Source: a virus. Taken from it: DNA of 64,000 nt. The position numbers and the translations under genes were made by a program. The notes under the pieces are model-generated. The model searched no databases and had not been told where the DNA came from. It worked only from the letters and a program-made list of their open reading frames with translations. Positions 4,085 to 64,000 of the stretch are shown in pieces. The stretch is taken from IMG/VR virus record IMGVR_UViG_3300045988_167063; one strand, written 5' to 3'. Positions within the stretch are counted from its first letter, which is position 1. Each line of letters starts with the position of its first letter.

Positions 4085-4615
4085 TTAACCATTGAAAACA
4101 GTTTTAAGAATATAAACCTTTTCTGTATCATCATCAAAATTGAATGTAGGATATTTTGCACTATCTACAATATCAACAACCTTAAATGAAGCTACATCGG
4201 CTGTTTGAATAGCCTTTGTTACCCAACCGTCTGCTGATGGCTCTAAAAATTGACCCTTTGTTGGAGCAGCACCCTTAATTCCGTGTGCAAGAACACCAAA
4301 TTCAATATTTACTTTAGGAATGAAAAAGTCAAGTGGATGCTTTGCAGGATTTGTATAGTTTCTATCATCCTTGCTTCTTGCAGGATAAAGATTGTCACCA
4401 ATAATATCATACTTTACAGACGGATTAAAAGCAATAGCAACTTCTTTAGCACCAGCTTCAGCCTTTGTTACCGTGTAAAGTTCCTTGTCTTTAGTATCAT
4501 AATCACCAACAGCAAGTGCAGTACCGCCGTCAATATCTACTGTTGCAATACCACCTCTGTTAATGCAACTTGGAATAAAATTATCTGTTTCAAACAAAAC
4601 ATTATGTTTAGCCAT
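4085..4615 (-). CDS. hypothetical capsid-associated protein
   Basis: 176 aa between the scaffold-like gene and the capsid gene. AAGGAG RBS. Function is inferred from position only. Confidence 0.45.
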   Translation of the reverse strand: MAKHNVLFETDNFIPSCINRGGIATVDIDGGTALAVGDYDTKDKELYTVTKAEAGAKEVAIAFNPSVKYDIIGDNLYPARSKDDRNYTNPAKHPLDFFIPKVNIEFGVLAHGIKGAAPTKGQFLEPSADGWVTKAIQTADVASFKVVDIVDSAKYPTFNFDDDTEKVYILKTVFNG

Positions 4616-6350: not shown

Positions 6351-7982
6351 CTATTGATACTCACGACTGACCGCTCCACCCTCAGCTAAATCACTATTAT
6401 CCTTTTGTGGTGCGCCAATATCGTAAGTATTTGTATTAGCATTAAACAAGGCAAATAAAGTATTTTGCATATCACTATGTTTAGCCTCTTTTACCATTGT
6501 TTCAAATTCACTGCCCTCATAACCTAAAAGAGTTCCCCACTTTCTTAAAGGCACTTGTATTCCTTTATCAGATAATTTTAAATGAGTATCAATATCTTCT
6601 TTCCTCTTAAAAGGCAGTGTACTACCACTAACACGAAATCTAAATTTATATCTTTTAGTTTTCTTGTTTACAAAGAAATTTAAAAAGTTTTCAAATTGTG
6701 GATAAACTGCATTTGCAATTTCTTGATAATCAGCGTTTGCAGCCAACTGTGCCTCTTCTTGTGATAATCTTTCATCTGTATAAATAAGTGAACTATTTGA
6801 AGCACCTAAACCAGCACTTGTTTTAAGTTGATTTTTATACATATTACTATTATTATCAGCAAATTGATAAAGCCTTGTTTCTTCAAGAGGTAAAGCAATT
6901 TGCTTAATATTTTTGTTAATGCCATTTCTTGCCAATCTCATAAGTTGTCCGACAACTTTAGGGTCAATAGTAAAGGCATTTTTATTATTGCCAACATTAT
7001 CTTTATCTCTTGTTTTCATTTCTCCAAGAATAATTGCATTTGCAGAAATAATATCCTTATCTCTTTGTAATTTAGAAATTATATCATCATCAAATACTGA
7101 CTTTAATAAGGAAGTTAAAGGTGGAACAGTATTAAAATTAGAGGTATCATATTTAAACAACCAACTTCCTGCATTTACCTTTGTTCTTATATAATTTTCA
7201 GCATTAAAAGTATTTTGCCTACCCAAATTTGACATATTGTCTACAATAAAGTTTTGCATTTGTTTGCTATTATCTTTACTACTTTGTCCTAATTTAGAAT
7301 AGGCTTGGGCAAGTGTTTCGTCATAATTAAGAACATTTACATTTGAACCATTAAAATAATTCAAATTAAAATCCCATAAAAAGCCATTTGCCCCACTACT
7401 TATAAAACGACCTGTGAGTTTACAATACTTTTGTGGCATCATTTGTAATGAAAAAGACTCTTTATTATCGTTCAAATCAATCGGAGTATCGTCAAAAGTC
7501 TTTTCGCTATCTCTAAGCCAACAAAAATAAGTATCTGTTTTGAGCATATTTTTGACAACATTTCTAAATTCTTGTTTCGCTTTAAAATAATTAAAGAATT
7601 TATCTACTCTTTTGCAATCCTCTTTATACTCTTCACTTTCAAACTCATCATCGTCTACTATATTAATCGGAACTCTATCTATATCAAAAGCCAATAAATT
7701 TGTTTTATATTCTATTGCCCTTTTATAAATAGCATCCCAAGTTTCCATAAATTCGGAATAATCTTGTAATGTTTCAGCAGAATTTTTATAAGTAGCAATA
7801 GCTTGCCTTAAACTATCTCTGTCAGGTATTTGTTCATTATTATTTAAGTCAACTAATGTTTTATATTCGTTTATAGTATCATAAAAATAATTATTCTTAT
7901 CTAATGGTGCTGAACTATAAAGTGCGTTCATAAAATCAATTACATTCCACACTTCGTCACGAGTTATAACTTCATCAGGCAA
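6351..7982 (-). CDS. portal protein (putative)
   Basis: 543 aa immediately downstream of the terminase large subunit. TTG start about 10 nt after GGAGG. Called from size and position only. Confidence 0.55.
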   Translation of the reverse strand: MPDEVITRDEVWNVIDFMNALYSSAPLDKNNYFYDTINEYKTLVDLNNNEQIPDRDSLRQAIATYKNSAETLQDYSEFMETWDAIYKRAIEYKTNLLAFDIDRVPINIVDDDEFESEEYKEDCKRVDKFFNYFKAKQEFRNVVKNMLKTDTYFCWLRDSEKTFDDTPIDLNDNKESFSLQMMPQKYCKLTGRFISSGANGFLWDFNLNYFNGSNVNVLNYDETLAQAYSKLGQSSKDNSKQMQNFIVDNMSNLGRQNTFNAENYIRTKVNAGSWLFKYDTSNFNTVPPLTSLLKSVFDDDIISKLQRDKDIISANAIILGEMKTRDKDNVGNNKNAFTIDPKVVGQLMRLARNGINKNIKQIALPLEETRLYQFADNNSNMYKNQLKTSAGLGASNSSLIYTDERLSQEEAQLAANADYQEIANAVYPQFENFLNFFVNKKTKRYKFRFRVSGSTLPFKRKEDIDTHLKLSDKGIQVPLRKWGTLLGYEGSEFETMVKEAKHSDMQNTLFALFNANTNTYDIGAPQKDNSDLAEGGAVSREYQ

Positions 7983-8006
7983 TAACGACTATTCCTCCTT
8001 TCTTAT

Positions 8007-8582
8007 TTAACCATAATCGTAAATATCACTGAAATCATCTAAATCAATTTCAGCATCTTGTTCATCTTTCACATACTTAATATAGACTTTATCACAAAAG
8101 TAATTAAACATTGCCAAAGTCATATATCTATCCTTTGTAGCTGTACTTTTTTCTTTAACTCTAACACCTTTATCTTTAAATTCTGTTGTTAAAGTAATTG
8201 CCTCATTAATAGCATACCTTGTTTCAACAAACGGTACAAGGTCATAAGCCTTCTTTTCAGAGGACTTCAATATCCATTTACTATCTTTTTCTTGAAATAG
8301 TAATTCCATTTCAGAGTCATCTTTAAGAAAACTAATTATATTATCTTTAAGATTTTTTCTCATCGCTAAGTGCATATCACTATTGATTTCACTTGTACCA
8401 GCAATAGGAATAATTACTTCTTCGGCATTAGAGTCCATAGTCCTATTAATTTTATCATTTATGATTTTATCAGAGCTTATTTGTAAAATTTTATCTCTAC
8501 ATACAGTCCACGCAGGATATGTAATATCTCTTTCATCATCATATGTTTCAGTTGTCAATAAATCAAAGAAAACATTTCCTAC
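8007..8582 (-). CDS. terL: terminase large subunit, exon 3 of 3
   Basis: Begins VGNVFFDLL..., which continues exon 2 (...YFVMDSKG) into a D-x-x-G-x-G nuclease-domain block. 576 nt, phase 0. The boundary is inferred. Confidence 0.7.
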   Translation of the reverse strand, partial: VGNVFFDLLTTETYDDERDITYPAWTVCRDKILQISSDKIINDKINRTMDSNAEEVIIPIAGTSEINSDMHLAMRKNLKDNIISFLKDDSEMELLFQEKDSKWILKSSEKKAYDLVPFVETRYAINEAITLTTEFKDKGVRVKEKSTATKDRYMTLAMFNYFCDKVYIKYVKDEQDAEIDLDDFSDIYDYG

Positions 8583-25008: not shown

Positions 25009-25211
25009 CAGAAAAAGTCTATGAAAATACTGATTATACAACAATAAATCAATATCTTGAAGTAACAATTGGTACAATTTGTGATAAAATTGAGGACACT
25101 ATTATTCAAATGACCTGCACCGACCATAAGAGGCAACGAGAAAAATTAAAGGATATTTGCCAATGCTATATTGATGACATTTATACAATTATAGGAATGA
25201 AAGAACAATAA
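25005..25211 (+). CDS. hypothetical protein
   Basis: 68 aa with ATGA coupling. Confidence 0.5.
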   Translation: MTEKVYENTDYTTINQYLEVTIGTICDKIEDTIIQMTCTDHKRQREKLKDICQCYIDDIYTIIGMKEQ

Positions 25212-34782: not shown

Positions 34783-34819
34783 AAAAGCACATTATTGCAA
34801 TGTGCTTTTATTTTTTTTT
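34783..34819 (+). terminator. rho-independent terminator
   Basis: AAAAGCACATT pairs with AATGTGCTTTT, followed by a T-run (34811-19). Confidence 0.8.
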
Positions 34820-34970: not shown

Positions 34971-34988
34971 TTTTTTTTTTTTTTTTTT
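34971..34988. repeat. T18 homopolymer
   Basis: 18 consecutive T, followed by ACTTCCCAT and ACTTTCCCAC. Confidence 0.95.
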
Positions 34989-38267: not shown

Positions 38268-39152
38268 ATGACAAACACAGAGTTAATAAAGATATTTGAA
38301 CAGACAATAAGGCAAAAACCATTCTCTTTAAGTGAGAATACAATTAAGACTTATTTATATCATATTGATAGTCTTTTAAAATTCCTCGACAATAAAAACA
38401 TTGCCGAGATTATAACAAAAGACATTAAAAAATATTTGTTTAATATCAGTTCTGTGGGTGTTTCAGATACAACCTATAATATTTCATTGGCAGGGTTTAA
38501 ATGCTTGTATAAAGCTTTGAGATACAATCCTATGACAGAAGATATTATTCAAAATAATCCAGCTATTGATATTCCAAGTATCAAAAACGCAAAACAAAAG
38601 AAAAAGACACCTTTAAATGAAATTGAAAAACAGGCATTATTGCATAGTTGTAAAAATGTAAGAGATTATGCTATTCTTGTAACTTATTTGAATGTTGGCT
38701 TGCGTGTTCACGAACTTGTTAATTTAACACTTGAACAATATCTTAATCGTGGCGAAAATGGCGAAATTAAACTTGTTGTTAATAAAGGCTCTTATGATGA
38801 TGAATATATTTTTATCAACGAACAGACCGAAAAGGCAATAGATAATTATATTAAGAATTTAAGAAAAGATTGTGGCTGTAAATATCTTTTTGTATCAAAT
38901 CAAGGCAACCAAATGACACCAAGTTGTATTTCTAAAACTATTAAGACTTTGGCAAGAAGAAGTGGTAAGTTTTCAGAAGATAGAATTTCACAATTATCAA
39001 ATCATATTATGCGACACACTATGGCAACTGATTTAGTTAATGAAAATGTGCCGATTGATGTTGTTGCAATGGTATTAAGACATCATAGTCTTGCAACAGT
39101 TATGACTTATGCAAAGACGGATAAAGAAAGAGTTATGGAGGCAGTAAGATGA
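38268..39152 (+). CDS. int: tyrosine site-specific recombinase (XerC/D-like or phage integrase family)
   Basis: 294 aa. It has an N-terminal SAM-like core-binding region. The catalytic signature is GLRVHEL (Arg), HIMRHTMAT (H-x-x-R), LRHHS and TYAKT (Tyr). Confidence 0.8.
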   Translation: MTNTELIKIFEQTIRQKPFSLSENTIKTYLYHIDSLLKFLDNKNIAEIITKDIKKYLFNISSVGVSDTTYNISLAGFKCLYKALRYNPMTEDIIQNNPAIDIPSIKNAKQKKKTPLNEIEKQALLHSCKNVRDYAILVTYLNVGLRVHELVNLTLEQYLNRGENGEIKLVVNKGSYDDEYIFINEQTEKAIDNYIKNLRKDCGCKYLFVSNQGNQMTPSCISKTIKTLARRSGKFSEDRISQLSNHIMRHTMATDLVNENVPIDVVAMVLRHHSLATVMTYAKTDKERVMEAVR

Positions 39153-43946: not shown

Positions 43947-43983
43947 ATTTAGCCACTTTGATTTTGTGTCGGAGTGGCTAAAT
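43947..43983 (+). promoter_or_regulatory. 10-bp perfect hairpin in front of the first methyltransferase
   Basis: ATTTAGCCAC (43947-56) pairs with GTGGCTAAAT (43974-83). There is no U-tract, and the RBS AAAGGAG follows at 43986. Confidence 0.4.
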
Positions 43984-44000
43984 TTAAAGGAGTGTTTAAA

Positions 44001-44702
44001 TTGTTCAATAAATTATTTAATAATGATTGTTTTAATATAATGAAAAATCTAATAAATGAAAATATTAAAGTAGATGCAATTATTGCCGACCCACCCTATA
44101 ACATAAAATATACTGATTGGGATAAAGAATTTAATACTCCTTTGGCTATTGATTTATGTTTAAATTTATTAAAACCCAACGGAAATTTGATTTTATTTCA
44201 AGGTTGGTCGAATGTTTGTAAAACAATTACATATATAGAAAATGAGCATAAAGAATTATTATTAAATAATTGGATTGCATATGATAGAATAAAAGGTCGT
44301 GGAGCAAAGAAAAACTTTGTTTCTACAAGAGAAGATATTTTATGGTATTCAAAAGGCAAAAATCCGACTTTTAATAAAATTTATTCAAATATCCCTAAAA
44401 AAACAGGCGGTATGGGCAAAAAGAACGGAGAAGAAAATCGTGCATTAACAAATGTTTGGTATGATTTGTCACCTATTGTTCCTTGGAGTAAAGAAAGAGT
44501 GGCACACCCCTCACAAAAATCTATTCAGCTTATGGAAAGATGTGTAACTATTTGGACTAATGAAGAAGATACTATTCTTGATTTTACTATGGGTAGTGGC
44601 AGTACAGGTGTAGCTTGTAAAAACTTAAATAGAAATTTTATAGGAATTGAAAATAACGAAGAATATTTTAAAATTGCAAAGGACAGAATATTAAATGCCT
44701 AA
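44001..44702 (+). CDS. DNA methyltransferase, N6A/N4C family (DPPY, beta-class order)
   Basis: LFNNDCFNIMKNL, IIADPPYN, then the C-terminal HPSQKSIQLMERCV and [13 protein letters not shown] (FxGxG). TTG start at 44001, 8 nt after AAAGGAG. The track starts at a GTG at 43974. Confidence 0.8.
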   Translation: MFNKLFNNDCFNIMKNLINENIKVDAIIADPPYNIKYTDWDKEFNTPLAIDLCLNLLKPNGNLILFQGWSNVCKTITYIENEHKELLLNNWIAYDRIKGRGAKKNFVSTREDILWYSKGKNPTFNKIYSNIPKKTGGMGKKNGEENRALTNVWYDLSPIVPWSKERVAHPSQKSIQLMERCVTIWTNEEDTILDFTMGSGSTGVACKNLNRNFIGIENNEEYFKIAKDRILNA

Positions 44703-45243: not shown

Positions 45244-46784
45244 TGGAGGGGTATATGCTATATTTTAATGATATTGGAAATTTAATTTTAGGTGCAATTT
45301 GTAATGATTGTTCTTTAGCTTTAAAGGATAAAATGCCCCTTGTAAAATATGATTTTGAACCTAATCAATTTCATAAAATTGTTTTTGTAAGTGTATATAA
45401 TCTTGCTTTAAAAGGTGTTAAAGAGGCAACAGAGGTAGAAATAACAGAGTTTCTTGAAAATTATACTTCAGAGTATAATACTTTCACGGATAATAATGGA
45501 ATTGAATATATAAAGACAATAAGAACACTTGCAAAAGTTGATAACTTTGATTATTATTGGCAAACTCTCAAAAAATATTCTTTATTAAGAAAATATAAAG
45601 AGAGTGGCTTTGACATAAATAAATTTTTTGATGAGTCAAAAGACGAAACAAAAGAAAGGCAAAAAGTTGATAAAGTTAGTATTGATGATATTGTAAATTA
45701 TTATGACAAATTACAATGTGACATAAAAAATGACTTTTTATTTAACAATGATATAGAGGAAATGATATGTGGTGATGGCTTTGATAATTTACTTGACGAA
45801 TTAGAAAAAGAGCCTATGATTGGTGGGCAACTTGCCTCACCTATTTTGACGAACTTATATCGTGGTTGGTGTAAAGGACACCTACTTTTGCGTGGTGCTC
45901 CGAGTTCTTTTGGTAAAACCTTAATGAGTATTATGGATTTGCTTATGGTTGGTTGTTTAAAGATATGGAGTGAAGATGAACAGAAATTTGTTGACAATCC
46001 CTATTATCAAGGTAAGGCAGTTTTAATTCATTCCGAGCAAAAATCTTTTACTGAAATTCAGCCGAGAGTTGTTTCAGTATTAGCAAAAATCAATTATTCA
46101 ACTGTTCTTGACGGAAATTATACAAAAGAAGAAAAACAAAGGCTTATCGAGGCAGGTCGTATACTTAAAGAAAGCGAATTTAAAATTGTCAATTATCCTA
46201 ATTTTACTTCTTCAGGTATGAGAGAAAAATGTAAACAATTAGCACTTGAGGGATATGAGTATTTTTATCAAGATTACATTTGGAATAATAGTTATATCAT
46301 TTCAGATATGAAAAAAACAATGGGATTGACAAATATTTCAGAGCCTAATGCTTTGTTGAATTTTTCAAATCAACTTAAAATGATTGCCGAGGAATTTGAT
46401 ATTGCTATGGCTACTTCGATGCAGTTGAATGATACATATAAAACAGCCGAAATACTCGATGAGGGTTGTCTATATGCCTCAAAAGCAGTTAAAACAAAGC
46501 TCGATAATGGTTGTATTACAACCCATCCAAAAGAAAAGGACATAAAGCAACTTGACTTACTGATTTCTAAATGGAATAGAAAATACAATACTAATAATAA
46601 CTTTGAACTTCTAAGACCGAATATGTTGACGAGTTGCTTTAAAACAAGATATGGTAAATATGGTGATAATGTAAAAATTTGGTCTTATATTGATAAGTCA
46701 ATAGGTAAAATTACAGATATGTTTGCAACAGATGAACATAATAATTTGATAAATATTCAACCTATGTATATTAAAAGGGTGTAA
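45243..46784 (+). CDS. DnaB-like replicative DNA helicase
   Basis: 513 aa. It has an N-terminal DnaB-type helical domain, then the Walker A motif LLLRGAPSSFGKTLMS and a RecA-like C-terminal domain. Confidence 0.7.
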   Translation: MEGYMLYFNDIGNLILGAICNDCSLALKDKMPLVKYDFEPNQFHKIVFVSVYNLALKGVKEATEVEITEFLENYTSEYNTFTDNNGIEYIKTIRTLAKVDNFDYYWQTLKKYSLLRKYKESGFDINKFFDESKDETKERQKVDKVSIDDIVNYYDKLQCDIKNDFLFNNDIEEMICGDGFDNLLDELEKEPMIGGQLASPILTNLYRGWCKGHLLLRGAPSSFGKTLMSIMDLLMVGCLKIWSEDEQKFVDNPYYQGKAVLIHSEQKSFTEIQPRVVSVLAKINYSTVLDGNYTKEEKQRLIEAGRILKESEFKIVNYPNFTSSGMREKCKQLALEGYEYFYQDYIWNNSYIISDMKKTMGLTNISEPNALLNFSNQLKMIAEEFDIAMATSMQLNDTYKTAEILDEGCLYASKAVKTKLDNGCITTHPKEKDIKQLDLLISKWNRKYNTNNNFELLRPNMLTSCFKTRYGKYGDNVKIWSYIDKSIGKITDMFATDEHNNLINIQPMYIKRV

Positions 46785-46787
46785 TGT

Positions 46788-47198
46788 ATGAACGATTTAG
46801 ATAGAAACAAAATAAACAGATTAAAATTACTTTACGAGTCGGAATTATATGATAATAAAGGTTTGAGTGCTAATACAACTAACATATGTTTAAATAAACC
46901 TTTTGAATTTGAGTATGACACAAACACAGATATGACTAATAATAATTTTTCCAAATCTAAAAATGAAGTTATTGTTTTATATATTCAAAATAGAACGCAT
47001 AGAAAAAAGAGAATAAACAAAAAATGGTTAAAAAAATTTGGTGTAACTGAAAGAAAAATAAATTGCCATATAGATTATAATATGAAAAATATATGTAATT
47101 ATGAAGTTAAGATAAATACAACAGAATTGACCGATTTTATTAAAGAGATGAAACAACATAGAAATAGAATTTATTTTGAAAATCCGATTAATAATTAA
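46788..47198 (+). CDS. hypothetical protein
   Basis: 136 aa, beginning 3 nt after the helicase stop. Confidence 0.5.
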   Translation: MNDLDRNKINRLKLLYESELYDNKGLSANTTNICLNKPFEFEYDTNTDMTNNNFSKSKNEVIVLYIQNRTHRKKRINKKWLKKFGVTERKINCHIDYNMKNICNYEVKINTTELTDFIKEMKQHRNRIYFENPINN

Positions 47199-47318
47199 GG
47201 TGAATATGATATTATGAATGTAAAATATGATTATAAAAATCGCACATATTATATTAAAGAGAAAGTCCACAATCAAACAATGATTATGTAGTTTGAAGAA
47301 TGTGACAGGTCTTTTGAT

Positions 47319-47618
47319 ATGATATATTATAATGTTGTATTGGGTGTATATAATAAAAGAAAGCACACACAGAAAAACGAAAATGATGCTATCGTTACAG
47401 GAAAATATCCATTTGAAACAGTAGCAAAAGCTATGAGAGTATTTAATCTTTTAGAGGAAGAAGTTATAAAAGAAAATAAATTCTACAATAGAAAAATAAT
47501 GATAATGATTAGTTGGGTTGACAATAGACGAAGGGATATATATTATAAATATTTATCAAGGCGTGGTTATAAATACGAAGTAGTAGATGGACAGAAATTT
47601 ATTTGCAAAATATATTGA
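47319..47618 (+). CDS. hypothetical protein
   Basis: 99 aa. No motif was recognised. Confidence 0.45.
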   Translation: MIYYNVVLGVYNKRKHTQKNENDAIVTGKYPFETVAKAMRVFNLLEEEVIKENKFYNRKIMIMISWVDNRRRDIYYKYLSRRGYKYEVVDGQKFICKIY

Positions 47619-47643
47619 CAAGCAGAATGAAATATGTTATAAT
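47615..47643 (+). promoter_or_regulatory. sigma-A-type promoter
   Basis: TTGACA, 17-nt spacer, TGtTATAAT. It overlaps the upstream stop codon. Confidence 0.6.
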
Positions 47644-47786
47644 TAAGACACAATAAAAATAAAAAAGGAGATTTATGTGGACGAAAATATGGAATGTATT
47701 TTAGTTTTAGGTTTATTTTTTCTATATTTAATAGTAGATAGATTTTTTGATTATTTAAACGAAAGAAATAATAGGAGGTAAAAATA

Positions 47787-48434
47787 ATGCTTAGTGGAAC
47801 TAAACTTGCAGGTAGTAATTCTAAAAGAGGTAGAGTTGAGAATGATTTTTATGCAACAAATCCAAAAGCAGTTGAAATGTTGCTCTCAAATAGTGAATTT
47901 AAAAAATGGTTTTGGAAAGATTATAACAATGGAAGCGATATAGAACTTTTAGAACCTTGTGTGGGTCAAGGACATATTATTCAAGGAATAAAAAATTATT
48001 ATAATAACAAAAATCTACTTATTAATTTTACCTGTCTTGACATTGCTGACCGTGGATATGATAATGTTATTGTGCAAGATTTTATGGAATATGATACAGA
48101 TAAGCGTTTTGATTGTATTATGACAAATCCACCTTATGAAATTGCAATGGAATTTGCACAAAAAGGAATGGAATTGTTGAAGCCTAATGGCAAAATGTGT
48201 ATGTTTTTAAAAATTCAGTTTTTAGAGGGTAGAAAGAGAAGAGAATTTTTTGACAAATACCCTCCTCGTTATATTTATGTATTTGAAAAAAGAATGGGAA
48301 CTTGGCGAAACGGAGAAGAATTTGAAGAAACGGAAGATGGAAAGAAAAAAAGATTATCGACAACAATGTGCCACGCTTGGTTTTGTTGGGAAAAGGGATT
48401 TACAGGTGAACCGATTGTGAGATGGGTTAGATAG
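47787..48434 (+). CDS. DNA N6-adenine methyltransferase (NPPY, gamma-class order)
   Basis: LEPCVGQGHI corresponds to motif I and IMTNPPYE to motif IV. AGGAGG RBS. Confidence 0.7.
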   Translation: MLSGTKLAGSNSKRGRVENDFYATNPKAVEMLLSNSEFKKWFWKDYNNGSDIELLEPCVGQGHIIQGIKNYYNNKNLLINFTCLDIADRGYDNVIVQDFMEYDTDKRFDCIMTNPPYEIAMEFAQKGMELLKPNGKMCMFLKIQFLEGRKRREFFDKYPPRYIYVFEKRMGTWRNGEEFEETEDGKKKRLSTTMCHAWFCWEKGFTGEPIVRWVR

Positions 48435-48443
48435 GAGATAAAT

Positions 48444-49230
48444 ATGAGTTTAGCTGAAATGTATAAGAGCGCAGATTATAAAGATAAAAATGGAATGTTG
48501 TTTAATAATGATTGTCTTGAGATTATGAAGAATATACCAGACGAAAGCATAGATTGTATTATTTGCGATTTACCTTATGGAACTACTGACTGTAAATGGG
48601 ATAGTGTAATTCCCTTTGAGTCTTTGTGGGGGGGGGTACGAAAGAATAATAAAAAATGATGGTGCTATTATACTGTTTGGTTCAGAGCCATTTAGCAGTG
48701 CGTTAAGAATGAGTAACTTAAATTTATATAAATATGATTGGGTTTGGGATAAAATTCAAGGTGCTAATTTTCTAAATGTTAAGTATCAGCCCTTAAAAAA
48801 TGTTGAAAATATTATGGTGTTTTCAAAAGGTCGTATAACTAATGGTAAAAGACAACCGATTAAGTATAATCCACAAGGAGTACACAAAACAAATACTGTA
48901 AAAACAAATTCATCTGATTATAATGGCACTTTTGGTTCATCAAGCGTTAAAAAAGGCAAGGAATATGTAACAACAGGAAGTGGTTATCCTAAATGTATTT
49001 TACAATTCGCAAAAGATAAAGATGGATTGCATCCAACACAAAAACCCGTTAAATTACTTGAATACTTAATTAAAACCTACACAGACGAAAACAATATTGT
49101 TTTAGATAACTGTATGGGTTCTGGTAGCACAGGAGTAGCGTGTTTAAATACAAATAGAAAATTTATAGGTATAGAATTAGACAAACAGTATTTTAATATT
49201 GCAGTTGAAAGAATGAAAAATAAGGAGTAA
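48444..49230 (+). CDS. DNA methyltransferase (DPPY-type, N6A/N4C family) interrupted by a +1 frameshift in a G9 tract
   Basis: Track ORFs 48444-48659 (...[26 protein letters not shown]) and 48616-49230 ([19 protein letters not shown]...[14 protein letters not shown]...[13 protein letters not shown]) are the two halves of one enzyme. With 8 G instead of 9 the frame is continuous (WGGYERII). Confidence 0.75.
48628..48636 (+). repeat. G9 homopolymer inside a methyltransferase gene
   Basis: Counted directly: 9 consecutive G in an otherwise AT-rich genome. Confidence 0.95.
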
Positions 49231-49237
49231 AAAAAAT

Positions 49238-49969
49238 ATGGTATATATGGGCAGTAAATCACGAATAGCTAAAGAAATTGTGCCGATTATTCAGTCTTAT
49301 ATTGATGATAATAATATTCATAATTATTTAGAGCCATTTTGTGGGGGGGGCAATGTAATTGATAAGGTAAAATGTGAACATAAATATGCAAGTGATGTTC
49401 ATCCTTATTTAATTGCATTGTTAAAGCAAGCACAAAAAGATACAAGTGTATTTCCTGAAACGATTACTTTAGAAGAATATAAAGATGTTAAAGACAATAA
49501 AGAAAAATATCCTGCTTGGTATGTTGGACTTGTTGGGTTTTGTGCAAGTTATAATGGTAAATGGTTCAGTGGTTATGCAAATAATATTAAAACTAAAATC
49601 GGAACAGTTAGAAAGTATGCAGACGAAAAAATAAGAAACCTCATCAAACAATCATTAAACTTAAAAGATATTCAATTTACTTGTTGTGATTTTAGAAATA
49701 TTAAGCCGACTATTAAGAATTTTGTGATTTATTGCGACATTCCTTATAAAAATTCTACAAAATATAAAGTAGATGATTTCCCTTATGATGAATTTTATGA
49801 TTGGTGTAGACAAATGGCTAAAAATAATATAGTATTAGTCAGCGAATATAATATGCCAGATGATTTTGAGTGTATATGGCAAAAAGAAATTAAAACCTCA
49901 TTGTGTATAGATAGAGCAAAAACAGACTCAAAACGAGTTGAAAAACTTTTTATAATAAATTCAAAATAA
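49238..49969 (+). CDS. Dam-like (D12-class) DNA N6-adenine methyltransferase
   Basis: YMGSKSRIAKEI, LEPFCGGGNV (motif I) and YCDIPYKNST (a DPPY variant). Confidence 0.75.
   Translation: MVYMGSKSRIAKEIVPIIQSYIDDNNIHNYLEPFCGGGNVIDKVKCEHKYASDVHPYLIALLKQAQKDTSVFPETITLEEYKDVKDNKEKYPAWYVGLVGFCASYNGKWFSGYANNIKTKIGTVRKYADEKIRNLIKQSLNLKDIQFTCCDFRNIKPTIKNFVIYCDIPYKNSTKYKVDDFPYDEFYDWCRQMAKNNIVLVSEYNMPDDFECIWQKEIKTSLCIDRAKTDSKRVEKLFIINSK
49343..49350 (+). repeat. G8 homopolymer inside the Dam-like gene (in frame; encodes the motif I GGG)
   Basis: Counted directly: TGT GGG GGG GGC. Confidence 0.95.
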
Positions 49970-49972
49970 TAC

Positions 49973-50001
49973 TTGACAATCTCCTTATCTTGTGATATAA
50001 T
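49973..50001 (+). promoter_or_regulatory. sigma-A-type promoter
   Basis: TTGACA, 17-nt spacer, TGaTATAAT. Confidence 0.65.
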
Positions 50002-50032
50002 TAAGACAACAAATAGATAAGGAGATTTTTTT

Positions 50033-50218
50033 ATGAGAATTTATACAATATTAGTCAATGGAGAGAAAGTCTTGCCAAAAGCATATAAAACTTATGGTGA
50101 AGCATTAGAGTGTATTCTTTGCCCATTAAATATAAAGAACACACAAAGGTTAGGTCAAGGATTGTTTGTAGTAAACGATACAACATATCAGATTACAGAA
50201 TGTTATGTGGAGGATTAA
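50033..50218 (+). CDS. hypothetical protein
   Basis: 61 aa with an AAGGAGA RBS. Confidence 0.55.
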   Translation: MRIYTILVNGEKVLPKAYKTYGEALECILCPLNIKNTQRLGQGLFVVNDTTYQITECYVED

Positions 50219-50220
50219 CT

Positions 50221-50748
50221 ATGAGAGAAATATTATTTAGAGGGAAACCTGTTCATAAAGAAGATTATACACTTTACGAAAAACTTTACAAGTCTGATGT
50301 TTTTAAAGATGGATTTGCCTATGGTTCTTTAGTTGTAATAAAAGATAAATATTATATTTGTATAGGTGTTGCAGGTGTTTCGATTAACAGTTTAATCAAT
50401 AATACAACAGCGACTTTAGTTGAGGTTATTCCTGAAACCGTAGGACAATTCACAGGCTTGACCGACAAAAACGGTAAAAAGATTTTTGAGGGGGATATTG
50501 TAAAAACTCAACCATTTTCTGATAAACCTTATTCCAGCAAAGCAAAATATAAAAAGCATATTGGTGTTGTCGAATATCGGATACGACATTTCAAAAATCA
50601 TTTTTATGGACAGGATTACGAAGCCAGATGGACAGTTACAATCATTGACTATGGCAAATTCACTTGTTATAATTGGAATGAATTTTTTAAATGCGAAATT
50701 ATCGGCAACATACACGATAACCCTGAATTGTTGGAGGTAAAAGAATGA
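50221..50748 (+). CDS. yopX: YopX-family protein (second copy)
   Basis: MREILFRGKPV...TVGQFTGLTDKNGKKIFEGDIV...IGNIHDNPELLEVKE. ATG at 50221 after GTGGAGGA. The track ORF starts upstream at 50110 in the same frame. Confidence 0.75.
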   Translation: MREILFRGKPVHKEDYTLYEKLYKSDVFKDGFAYGSLVVIKDKYYICIGVAGVSINSLINNTTATLVEVIPETVGQFTGLTDKNGKKIFEGDIVKTQPFSDKPYSSKAKYKKHIGVVEYRIRHFKNHFYGQDYEARWTVTIIDYGKFTCYNWNEFFKCEIIGNIHDNPELLEVKE

Positions 50749-50924
50749 CAAATTTTGAGCGAATTAAAAATATGAGTGTTGAGGAAATGGCAAGTGAAAT
50801 CAATCACATAGGCAATGTTCCTTGCTTTCCTTGCAATGACAGAAGATGTACAGGAGATAGCGGTAGTGTTATCAAATGTTGCAAAGGTATAAAAAAGTGG
50901 TTTGAAAGCGAGGTAGAGGAATGA
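50745..50924 (+). CDS. hypothetical small Cys-rich protein (59 aa), paralogue of 21824-22027
   Basis: Hand-found ORF MTNFERIKNMSVEEMASEINHIGNVPCFPCNDRRCTGDSGSVIKCCKGIKKWFESEVEE, with ATGA overlaps on both sides. Confidence 0.5.
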   Translation: MTNFERIKNMSVEEMASEINHIGNVPCFPCNDRRCTGDSGSVIKCCKGIKKWFESEVEE

Positions 50925-51442
50925 AAGCACAAGAAGCAATTAAAACGCTCAAAATGGAAATGTTGGGCGATGATGAGCAAATGAAATATGCTAAACAAAT
51001 GGCAATAGAAGCACTTGAAAAACAAATACCTAAAGAGCCTATTAAAAAATATGATTGTAAAAATTGTATTCACGATGAAATATGCCCTGTATGGGATGAT
51101 TATAATGACGAACCTTGCAAAGACGGATATAGAGGATTTTGTCATAATTATGATAAATTTAAAGATAAATCACTAATTGTTGAATTGCCTTGTAGGGTTG
51201 GCGAAGAAATTTATGTTTTAAACAAAGAGAACATACCGCAAAGAATGATTTTAGACAAACCCGACATAAGATGTTATTGTCCAAAAGAAGACTATTTATG
51301 TAAGGCTTCGTGTGATGATATGAAACACTGTTATTGTGCATATCATTTTAACTATGATGGGTCAGATATTGGTGAAAAAGTTTTTCGCACTAAAGAAGAA
51401 GCAGAAGAAAAGTTAAAGGAGTTAAATAATGAACAAGATTAA
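50921..51442 (+). CDS. hypothetical protein, paralogue of 20029-20403
   Basis: 173 aa. It shares the VELPCR...Y and F-TKEEAE-KLKELN blocks with the other copy. Confidence 0.6.
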   Translation: MKAQEAIKTLKMEMLGDDEQMKYAKQMAIEALEKQIPKEPIKKYDCKNCIHDEICPVWDDYNDEPCKDGYRGFCHNYDKFKDKSLIVELPCRVGEEIYVLNKENIPQRMILDKPDIRCYCPKEDYLCKASCDDMKHCYCAYHFNYDGSDIGEKVFRTKEEAEEKLKELNNEQD

Positions 51443-51728
51443 AGATATTGAATTAGAACAAATGAAAGACCTTAATAATTGGAAAGAGATTACGAAAGGA
51501 TTATATCGTTATGTGATTAGTGCAAATGCTTGTTATGAAATTCATATCAAGATACGCAAATTTGATAGACCTATTTTAATGGCAAACGCAAGTTTGTTTT
51601 TAGTCGGTGATTGGCGTGATAAAAATGGGGGTAGTTTCTTTTCAAGAGAGTGTTTATTATCAAAGAACCAAACTGTTCAGAAATGTATTGAAAAGGCAAT
51701 ACAAGATTACAAGGAAAATATGAATTAA
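51429..51728 (+). CDS. hypothetical protein
   Basis: 99 aa with an AAGGAG RBS. Confidence 0.55.
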   Translation: MNKIKDIELEQMKDLNNWKEITKGLYRYVISANACYEIHIKIRKFDRPILMANASLFLVGDWRDKNGGSFFSRECLLSKNQTVQKCIEKAIQDYKENMN

Positions 51729-63588: not shown

Positions 63589-64000
63589 ATGAAATGGGAA
63601 TTAATAAATTATTGTGAACTTGATAAATATGCTTCTAAAGCATATAGTGCAATTCACAATGTTAATGAAAATCAAAATCTTGGAGATATTACTAAAGTAA
63701 ATGCAAAAGATTTAAAAGATTTTGATTTAATGACTTGGGGTTTTCCTTGCACAGATATTTCTATTTGTGGTAAACAACAAGGTTTAATAGATAATCAAGG
63801 AAATCAAACACGAAGTGGTTTATATTATGATGGACTAAGAATTTTAAAAGAGAAGAAACCTAAAGTTTCTATTATTGAAAATGTAAAGGCTTTAACAAGT
63901 AAAAAGTTCAAAAAAGAATTTGAAATGATTTTATCTGACTTAGAAAAAATAGGCTATAATAATCATTATAAAGTAATTAATTCAAAGGATTATGGCTCGG
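63589..64000 (+). CDS. DNA cytosine-5 methyltransferase, partial (runs off the window); N-terminal motif I apparently missing
   Basis: ELDKYASKAYSAIHN (motif II region), WGFPCTDIS (motif IV, PC) and IIENVKAL (motif VI, ENV). An in-frame TAG at 63574-76 lies 5 codons upstream of the ATG, so no FxGxG block can be read. Confidence 0.7.
   Translation, partial: MKWELINYCELDKYASKAYSAIHNVNENQNLGDITKVNAKDLKDFDLMTWGFPCTDISICGKQQGLIDNQGNQTRSGLYYDGLRILKEKKPKVSIIENVKALTSKKFKKEFEMILSDLEKIGYNNHYKVINSKDYGS

Follow-up and report, generated by a model that had tools for sequence, protein, structure and literature searches.

RESULTS

Three methyltransferase genes and two poly-G tracts

The DNA analyzed here, called the window throughout, is a stretch of 64,000 bases (GC content, 28.6%) from the viral record IMGVR_UViG_3300045988_167063 of IMG/VR, and the subject of this work is a pair of long G runs lying in two adjacent DNA methyltransferase genes. 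Five DNA methyltransferase genes, falling into four classes, were identified in the window (two of PF01555 and one each of the Eco57I/NPPY-like, D12, and C5 types), and three of them stand head to tail on the plus strand from 47787 to 49969, with gaps of 9 and 7 bases. The first gene of this block (47787-48434) encodes an NPPY, Eco57I-like enzyme of 215 amino acids (aa) (PF07669, 30.1 bits versus a cut-off of 25.3) and is free of tracts here. The middle gene spans 48444-49230 and is broken by a run of nine G residues (G9) at 48628-48636 (tract 1) into two open reading frames (ORFs), namely an N-terminal fragment of 71 aa (48444-48659), which ends at a premature TGA caused by the run (OFF), and a C-terminal frame of 204 aa (48616-49230), which matches PF01555 (N6_N4_Mtase) at 99.1 bits versus a cut-off of 26.7; G8 or G11 would be in frame. 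The third gene (49238-49969) encodes a D12-class (Dam-like) N6-adenine methyltransferase of 243 aa (PF02086, 66.2 bits versus a cut-off of 22) and has its own AAGGAG ribosome-binding site. Its run of eight G residues at 49343-49350 (tract 2) encodes the Gly-Gly-Gly of motif I (FCGGGN), and the gene is in frame (ON). Both runs, like the genes, are on the plus strand. A promoter-like site (TTGACA, 17-nucleotide spacer, TG, TATAAT; 12 of 12 positions, a consensus match only) precedes the block at 47615-47643 on the plus strand, and a second one (12 of 12 matches, with TG, again by consensus only) is located at 49973-50001 on the same strand, directly after the stop codon of the Dam-like gene that ends the block.

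The middle enzyme belongs to the beta-class N6/N4 DNA methyltransferases (PF01555), which have a circularly permuted motif order: the N-terminal fragment holds motif IV (DLPY), GSGST is found toward the C terminus, and the relatives of the intact enzyme in the PDB are DpnA, CcrM, MboIIA, and RsrI. The Dam-like enzyme is a D12-class (PF02086) protein by its profile score and by motifs I (encoded by the tract) and IV (DIPY). A PDB sequence search with this protein returned no relative at an E value of ≤0.01, so its specificity cannot be assigned by homology. A first-pass annotation, made from the letters of this DNA alone, had given exactly the same coordinates for the G9 and G8 runs, had placed both inside methyltransferase genes, and had divided the middle gene into the same two ORFs; the present analysis, in which both Pfam matches exceed their cut-offs, agrees with it on each of these points. 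Its label of DPPY for motif IV has to be replaced by DLPY (middle enzyme) and DIPY (Dam-like enzyme). The neighbors of the block include further methyltransferases, a DnaB-like helicase, and a YopX-domain gene; no endonuclease, specificity subunit, res, or hsdR gene was found among them. The tract-bearing methyltransferases are orphan phage enzymes standing outside any host restriction-modification system, in which respect they differ from a phasevarion.

The two tracts are 715 bp apart and are the sole runs of at least six G or C residues in the window. The histogram of G runs goes from length 5 (two cases) straight to 8 and 9, and 0.05 G/C runs of eight or more bases are expected under a first-order Markov model. 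GGG is the rarest Gly codon in the window (7.3%), and all GGG-GGG codon pairs in its ORFs fall within tracts 1 and 2. The tract lengths are far beyond chance, as the earlier annotation had held. Of the five methyltransferase genes, only these two carry poly-G tracts; the genes outside the block are the second PF01555 methyltransferase (43974-44702) and the C5 methyltransferase, which starts at 63589 (63589-64000 within the window).

Length alleles in natural populations

The phage has been assembled repeatedly from human-gut metagenomes, and the contigs used here, of up to 110 kb, come from the assemblies of ENA submitters and from Logan. Alleles were surveyed by passing from a protein cluster to the contigs encoding its members: the protein predicted for a G8 form of tract 1 served as the search query, the match was a protein cluster at 90% identity, and the DNA of the encoding contigs was then read. 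The cluster turned out to hold ON and OFF forms alike, i.e., full-length proteins of 259 to 261 aa and proteins of 200, 201, and 204 aa that start at the tract. One of the former, P0124 (261 aa), is identical to the two halves of the middle enzyme in the window, and its DNA has G8, so the prediction that G8 would restore this enzyme is realized in nature. The contigs per form numbered 21 for P0124, 15 for the 204-aa protein, 10 for the 200-aa protein, and 3 and 6 for the 201-aa proteins; in these look-ups, tract 1 was read as G8 in 21 contigs, G9 in 15, G7 in 10, and G10 in 9. With identical flanks, tract 1 was found as G7, G8, G9, or G10 and tract 2 as G6, G7, G8, or G9. At tract 1, G8 gives the 261-aa enzyme, and G7, G9, and G10 give a stub of 67 to 71 aa plus an untranslated frame of about 200 aa; at tract 2, G8 gives the 243-aa enzyme, and G6, G7, and G9 give split genes (OFF). 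The natural G7 and G9 forms thereby bear out the claim that the Dam-like gene, in frame at G8, is lost by a change of one G. A scan with the exact flanks as a pattern yielded no match in viral contigs and one, with G9, in metagenome contigs.

We then aligned 35 contigs to positions 45900-51600 of the window. Twenty of them, from independent human-gut samples, matched the window at 99.9 to 100% identity across as much as 5.7 kb, several with zero substitutions in 5.3 to 5.5 kb, and among these 20 tract 1 was G7 in 4, G8 in 6, G9 in 9, and G10 in 1. The recurrent small indels seen among the 35 contigs outside divergent haplotypes were located at 48628 (25 contigs) and 49343 (7 contigs). From these alignments, the tracts appear to mutate far faster than the rest of this DNA. 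The contig ends lay away from the tracts, a result that speaks neither for nor against mixed states within a sample. Tract 2 also differed within haplotypes (G8 in contig L109 versus G7 in L110; G6 in L136 versus G9 in L137 and L139), and one contig, L103, combined G8 (ON) at tract 1 with G9 (OFF) at tract 2, the exact reciprocal of the window. The combinations ON/ON, ON/OFF, OFF/ON, and OFF/OFF were all observed; the two switches vary independently. The proposal of the first-pass annotation that length-variable tracts toggle the two genes is thus upheld by dozens of independently assembled contigs that differ in tract length and have identical flanks.

The frequencies of the alleles are approximate, since the counts derive from assemblies, and the look-ups behind them merge similar places; moreover, look-ups by the protein variants of tract 1 are biased for tract 1, albeit not for tract 2. 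The least biased sample came from a look-up with the exact Dam-like protein, a route roughly free of bias for tract 1. Among the 24 contigs with an identical Dam-like protein that it returned, tract 1 was G7 in 5, G8 in 4, G9 in 11, and G10 in 1 (the remaining 3 had another cassette), i.e., ON in 4 of 21 contigs and OFF in 17 of 21. Tract 2, read in 36 contigs from the look-ups by tract 1 variants, was G8 (ON) in 28, G9 in 4, G7 in 1, G6 in 2, and an interrupted, out-of-frame GGGGGAG in 1. The Dam-like enzyme is mostly ON and the middle enzyme mostly OFF.

Poly-G tracts in related phages

In contigs L104 and L105, which belong to a different, more distant phage, the middle enzyme is 82 to 86% identical to that of the window and the tract is kept at the same codons, as G7 (OFF) in L104 and as G8 (ON) in L105. 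The middle slot is a swap cassette, in which related phages share about 25 residues at the N terminus and about 24 at the C terminus and have different catalytic or specificity cores, a pattern that looks like recombination between the conserved gene ends. The cassette lies at 48444-49230 in the window, at 4292-4996 in L001 and L002, at 4225-4995 in L003, and at 326-1195 in L151, where a 289-aa D12 enzyme takes the place of the middle methyltransferase. The nearest IMG/VR record, L003, shares 27% of the window's sampled 31-letter words; in its middle gene, a different core has G8 elsewhere in the sequence (RGGRKP, ON), the Dam-like gene is OFF with G9, and these two tracts are the only ones of G7 or longer in 87 kb. 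A third core, with G8 (ENGGGRV, ON), is found in L002, and L001 has the same core with an interrupted run (GGTGGGGG); the motif I tract in the Dam-like gene of L001 is interrupted too, in a locked-ON form (GGTGGGTG). All three tracts in the 64.8 kb of contig L009 fall in methyltransferases, namely a D12 enzyme with G8 (ON), a second D12 enzyme, turned OFF by G7 in the homologous motif I, and an NPPY enzyme (ORF 7726-8337), homologous to the first methyltransferase of the block in the window, with G8 at 7912-7919 in motif I (CGGGH, ON). Finally, the Dam-like gene of L012 has G9 (C9 in the run list of the contig) at another codon (DNWGGG, OFF), and L030 has G9 in yet another PF01555 enzyme. These comparisons suggest that poly-G tracts arose convergently, at different positions and in different alleles and classes of methyltransferase. 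Because the runs occupy different positions in different methyltransferase genes, selection would seem to act on mutability itself and not on Gly-Gly coding.

Several further runs were seen in relatives. The L012 contig (G005; 124,408 bp, 40% GC) has about ten G/C runs of 7 to 10 bases, at 2819, 22107, 25185, 25617, 39931, 46302, 67125, 70670, 118156, and 120445. Besides that in the Dam-like gene, they include an in-frame G7 in a C5 methyltransferase, an in-frame C8 in a second D12 enzyme, and C10 in a PAPS-reductase/PP-loop-like gene that is apparently OFF; other genes with tracts are that of a Gly-rich tail-fiber-like protein and two small paralogous ORFs (at 25185 and 25617). In the cultured Enterocloster phage CB473P1 (L140), motif I of the Dam-like gene likewise holds a G run, an in-frame G7 (4122-4128), and a small gene contains C9 (8578-8586). 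In CB473P3 (L141), the Dam-like gene is split at a T6-to-T7 run (around 4337) and annotated as two hypothetical proteins, and in CB457P2 and CB473P2 the Dam-like locus is likewise annotated as two coding sequences.

Restriction sites and genomic context

Several 4-bp palindromes, and GAATTC, turned out to be missing or nearly so from the window. The observed versus expected counts were 0 versus 121 for GATC, 0 versus 141 for CATG, 0 versus 68 for GGCC, 0 versus 78 for CTAG, 1 versus 83 for ACGT, 2 versus 32 for CCGG, 1 versus 14 for CGCG, and 0 versus 22 for GAATTC; AATT, TTAA, TATA, and TGCA were near their expected counts. The window thus combines a very strong signature of restriction-site avoidance with five methyltransferase genes, and the two together point to heavy restriction pressure. 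Since GATC does not occur in the window, the Dam-like enzyme cannot protect GATC on this DNA, and an enzyme specific for that site would have no target there.

The phage is about 105 kb in size. Its other genes in the window encode a portal protein, a tail-fiber-like protein, a DnaB-like helicase, a primase, a DnaE-type polymerase, RecJ-like and SbcD-like nucleases, and, at 38268-39152, an integrase-like tyrosine recombinase (phrog_1, E = 4.7e-40). The last coexists with the phage's own replisome, and the candidate lifestyles are those of a temperate phage, a phage-plasmid, or a virulent phage with a resolvase. No close relative of the window was found among the INPHARED phage records: the best DNA match, 68% identity to Enterocloster phages, covers the Dam-like gene only, and the best polymerase match (53% amino acid identity) is an unannotated fecal contig. 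Even the nearest relatives in culture are distant; they infect Enterocloster bolteae. Two observations were made in passing. About 840 bp of the stretch that separates the DnaB-like gene from the first methyltransferase of the block (46777-47680) are missing or replaced in many near-identical contigs (e.g., L108, L109, and L128), a presence/absence polymorphism of small ORFs, and a T18 homopolymer lies at 34971-34988 in an apparently noncoding stretch, with T9 close by at 34811-34819.

DISCUSSION

A probable two-bit methylation switch

Both runs are over-long repeats inside ORFs, their lengths are polymorphic in near-identical genomes, and the changes toggle the frame between intact and truncated, which are three marks of a contingency locus. 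We consider it probable that the two poly-G runs are slipped-strand contingency loci that together form a two-bit switch of phage methylation, with a presumed role in anti-restriction bet-hedging. One-base gains and losses in each run during replication of the phage DNA, presumably by its own DnaE-type replisome, would shift the corresponding methyltransferase into or out of frame. The two adjacent genes, probably carried on one transcript, would switch independently and give four methylation states, that of the window being middle enzyme OFF (G9) and Dam-like enzyme ON (G8). Such switching should be fast and reversible, and a single population would be expected to contain a mixture of states. 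The likely benefit is bet-hedging: methylation would protect the phage in hosts with a matching restriction enzyme and would be a liability, or a plain cost, in hosts that possess modification-dependent (type IV) nucleases. The strong bias toward OFF at the middle enzyme agrees with a modification that mostly carries a cost and is essential only on occasion.

Three points weigh against this interpretation. The alleles were taken from assemblies, which give the majority allele only, and homopolymers are prone to error; about four-fifths of the contigs have tract 1 OFF, with G9 (OFF) as the mode, a distribution that relaxed selection could also yield; and the absence of GATC from the window excludes the classical role of Dam.

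A more far-reaching proposal, to which we give somewhat less than an even chance, is that a prevalent lineage of human-gut phages of about 90 to 125 kb, with Enterocloster phages as its nearest cultured relatives, possesses a hypermutable "methylome switchboard," in which tracts have been installed repeatedly and independently, at different codons, in swappable methyltransferase cassettes, every burst is mixed, and the predominance of OFF alleles reflects the fact that methylation is usually a liability. The switchboard would comprise beta-class N6/N4, D12, and NPPY enzymes and possibly C5 and PAPS-reductase-like modification enzymes, the liability would most plausibly stem from modification-dependent (type IV) nucleases of the hosts, and the phage epigenome would be a contingency trait comparable to the surface antigens of bacteria.

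Alternative explanations

The rival that survives best accepts that the switches are real and makes them regulatory: by methylating the host or phage genome, the enzymes would alter expression or the life cycle in a carrier or lysogenic state, much as a phasevarion does. The integrase-like tyrosine recombinase encoded at 38268-39152 speaks for it, as does the fact that prophage methyltransferases can reprogram their hosts, for instance, PamA of Staphylococcus aureus (as cited in PMC13076061); besides, with GATC missing from the phage DNA, a GATC-type activity would act on the host alone. However, every long contig is stand-alone, at about 103 to 110 kb, and never embedded in a longer host contig, and the heavy restriction pressure indicated by the five methyltransferases and the extreme palindrome avoidance also argues against a regulatory role. 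We regard this explanation as rather unlikely; it is compatible with the switch proposed above and does not exclude it.

It could also be supposed that the middle methyltransferase is a decaying pseudogene whose tract drifts neutrally. The OFF state of tract 1 in 17 of the 21 contigs of the least biased sample, with G9 as the modal allele, would agree with this, and a relative, L138, has an interrupted, out-of-frame tract 2 that is apparently locked OFF. The downstream part of the gene, however, is under purifying selection. For the 197 to 200 codons downstream of tract 1, which are untranslated in OFF alleles, the ratio of nonsynonymous to synonymous substitution rates (dN/dS) was 0.09 to 0.15, even for a pair in which both alleles are OFF, namely the window (G9) and L104 (G7), at a dS of about 0.83, and decay is disfavored because of these low values. 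A second lesion was seen in no OFF allele, ON alleles occur on the same 100%-identical haplotype, the tract has been kept in the phage of L104 and L105 despite the divergence of the enzyme to 82 to 86% identity, and other alleles of the middle gene independently carry G8 tracts of their own. All this argues against decay, and we consider a pseudogene very unlikely.

Still harder to credit is the notion that the genes are constant and that the length differences are errors of sequencing or assembly at G homopolymers. Homopolymers are the classic site of indel errors, and such errors do occur in this material, as is attested by two indels, each seen once, in an A7 and a T6 run of contigs with low coverage (3x for the contig with the T6 indel). 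Each allele of tract 1, however, recurs in independent samples processed by different pipelines (ENA submitters' assemblies and Logan), and the exact G9/G8 allele of the window is shared by at least 15 contigs that differ in sample and assembler, a recurrence that does not fit the one-off assembly or homopolymer error that the first-pass annotation had named as the scenario that would refute it. Five A/T runs of 7 to 8 bases in the same region of these contigs were essentially invariant, with one singleton change among the near-identical contigs, and distant relatives show ON and OFF lengths at homologous and nonhomologous tracts.

Equally improbable is that the gene is not OFF at all and that the full-length enzyme is made from G9 by programmed ribosomal frameshifting or by RNA polymerase slippage: long homopolymers can induce transcriptional slippage, which makes low-level in-frame mRNA from G9 plausible on general grounds, but a programmed site should have a fixed length, and programmed frameshifting was rejected on this ground since G7 to G10 coexist on identical backgrounds, G8 yields a simple uninterrupted ORF, and no frameshift stimulator was noticed, none having been searched for.

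Significance and comparison with known systems

The locus brings together bacterial phase-variable methyltransferases and phage contingency loci in an abundant, uncultured phage of the human gut, for which natural allele frequencies from dozens of people are at hand. If phages do gamble with their anti-restriction methyltransferases, being methylated must often carry a genuine cost in the gut. When a methyltransferase looks "frameshifted" in the assembly of a phage or virome, it should then not be called a pseudogene or corrected as an error, and host-range predictions and phage-therapy cocktails would have to allow for methylome heterogeneity inside one phage stock. Tract length would also offer a simple marker for tracking phage-host arms races in longitudinal metagenomes. 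Our literature searches turned up no earlier account of gut phages with phase-variable, poly-G-switched orphan methyltransferases. The nearest precedents for the locus are the phase-variable methyltransferases of bacteria, the agt contingency locus of T2, and the methylase tract of Bordetella phage BPP-1.

Phase-variable methyltransferases, and contingency loci based on simple sequence repeats in general, are well known in host-adapted bacteria, examples being the type III mod genes of Haemophilus, Neisseria, Helicobacter, and Moraxella and the poly-G-containing type IIG gene cj0031 of Campylobacter jejuni. As in bacterial phasevarions, a repeat inside the methyltransferase ORF toggles the frame and ON and OFF alleles coexist in nature. 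Unlike in those systems, the genes are orphans on a phage of about 105 kb with no res or hsdR partner adjoining, the DNA that is marked is presumably the phage's own, and two independent switches lie in adjacent genes.

Among phages, a poly-G run in a DNA methylase gene, the feature shared with the present locus, has been noted in Bordetella phage BPP-1, where, according to a citing preprint, it was left without further study and was not described as a contingency locus (Liu et al. 2004, J Bacteriol 186:1503). Hypermutable poly-G tracts of 7 to 11 bases are also reported in the receptor-binding genes of Campylobacter Fletchervirus phages, where they result in phenotypically mixed progeny (Sorensen et al. 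2021, Cell Rep 35:109214). Those are likewise poly-G tracts in phage genes, but they govern host recognition and not DNA modification, and they belong to another phage family and another host phylum.

Contingency loci of phages were demonstrated in 2025, in T2 and T4. In the agt gene of T2, frameshifts of plus or minus one base in an A9 run switch DNA glucosylation off and revert about 1,000-fold faster than point mutations, and glucosylation protects against McrA/BC and sensitizes to TgvAB (Gomez, Barrick and Waters, bioRxiv 10.1101/2025.10.21.683753). T2 has A9 in a single glucosyltransferase, and its switching was shown experimentally, whereas the window has G8 and G9 in two methyltransferases of an AT-rich genome, where such runs are far less expected, and the evidence is population-genomic only. 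The two systems have in common a homopolymer in a phage DNA-modification gene, and by analogy the trade-off proposed here, between protection from one class of host defense and exposure to another, would follow the same logic as that of T2.

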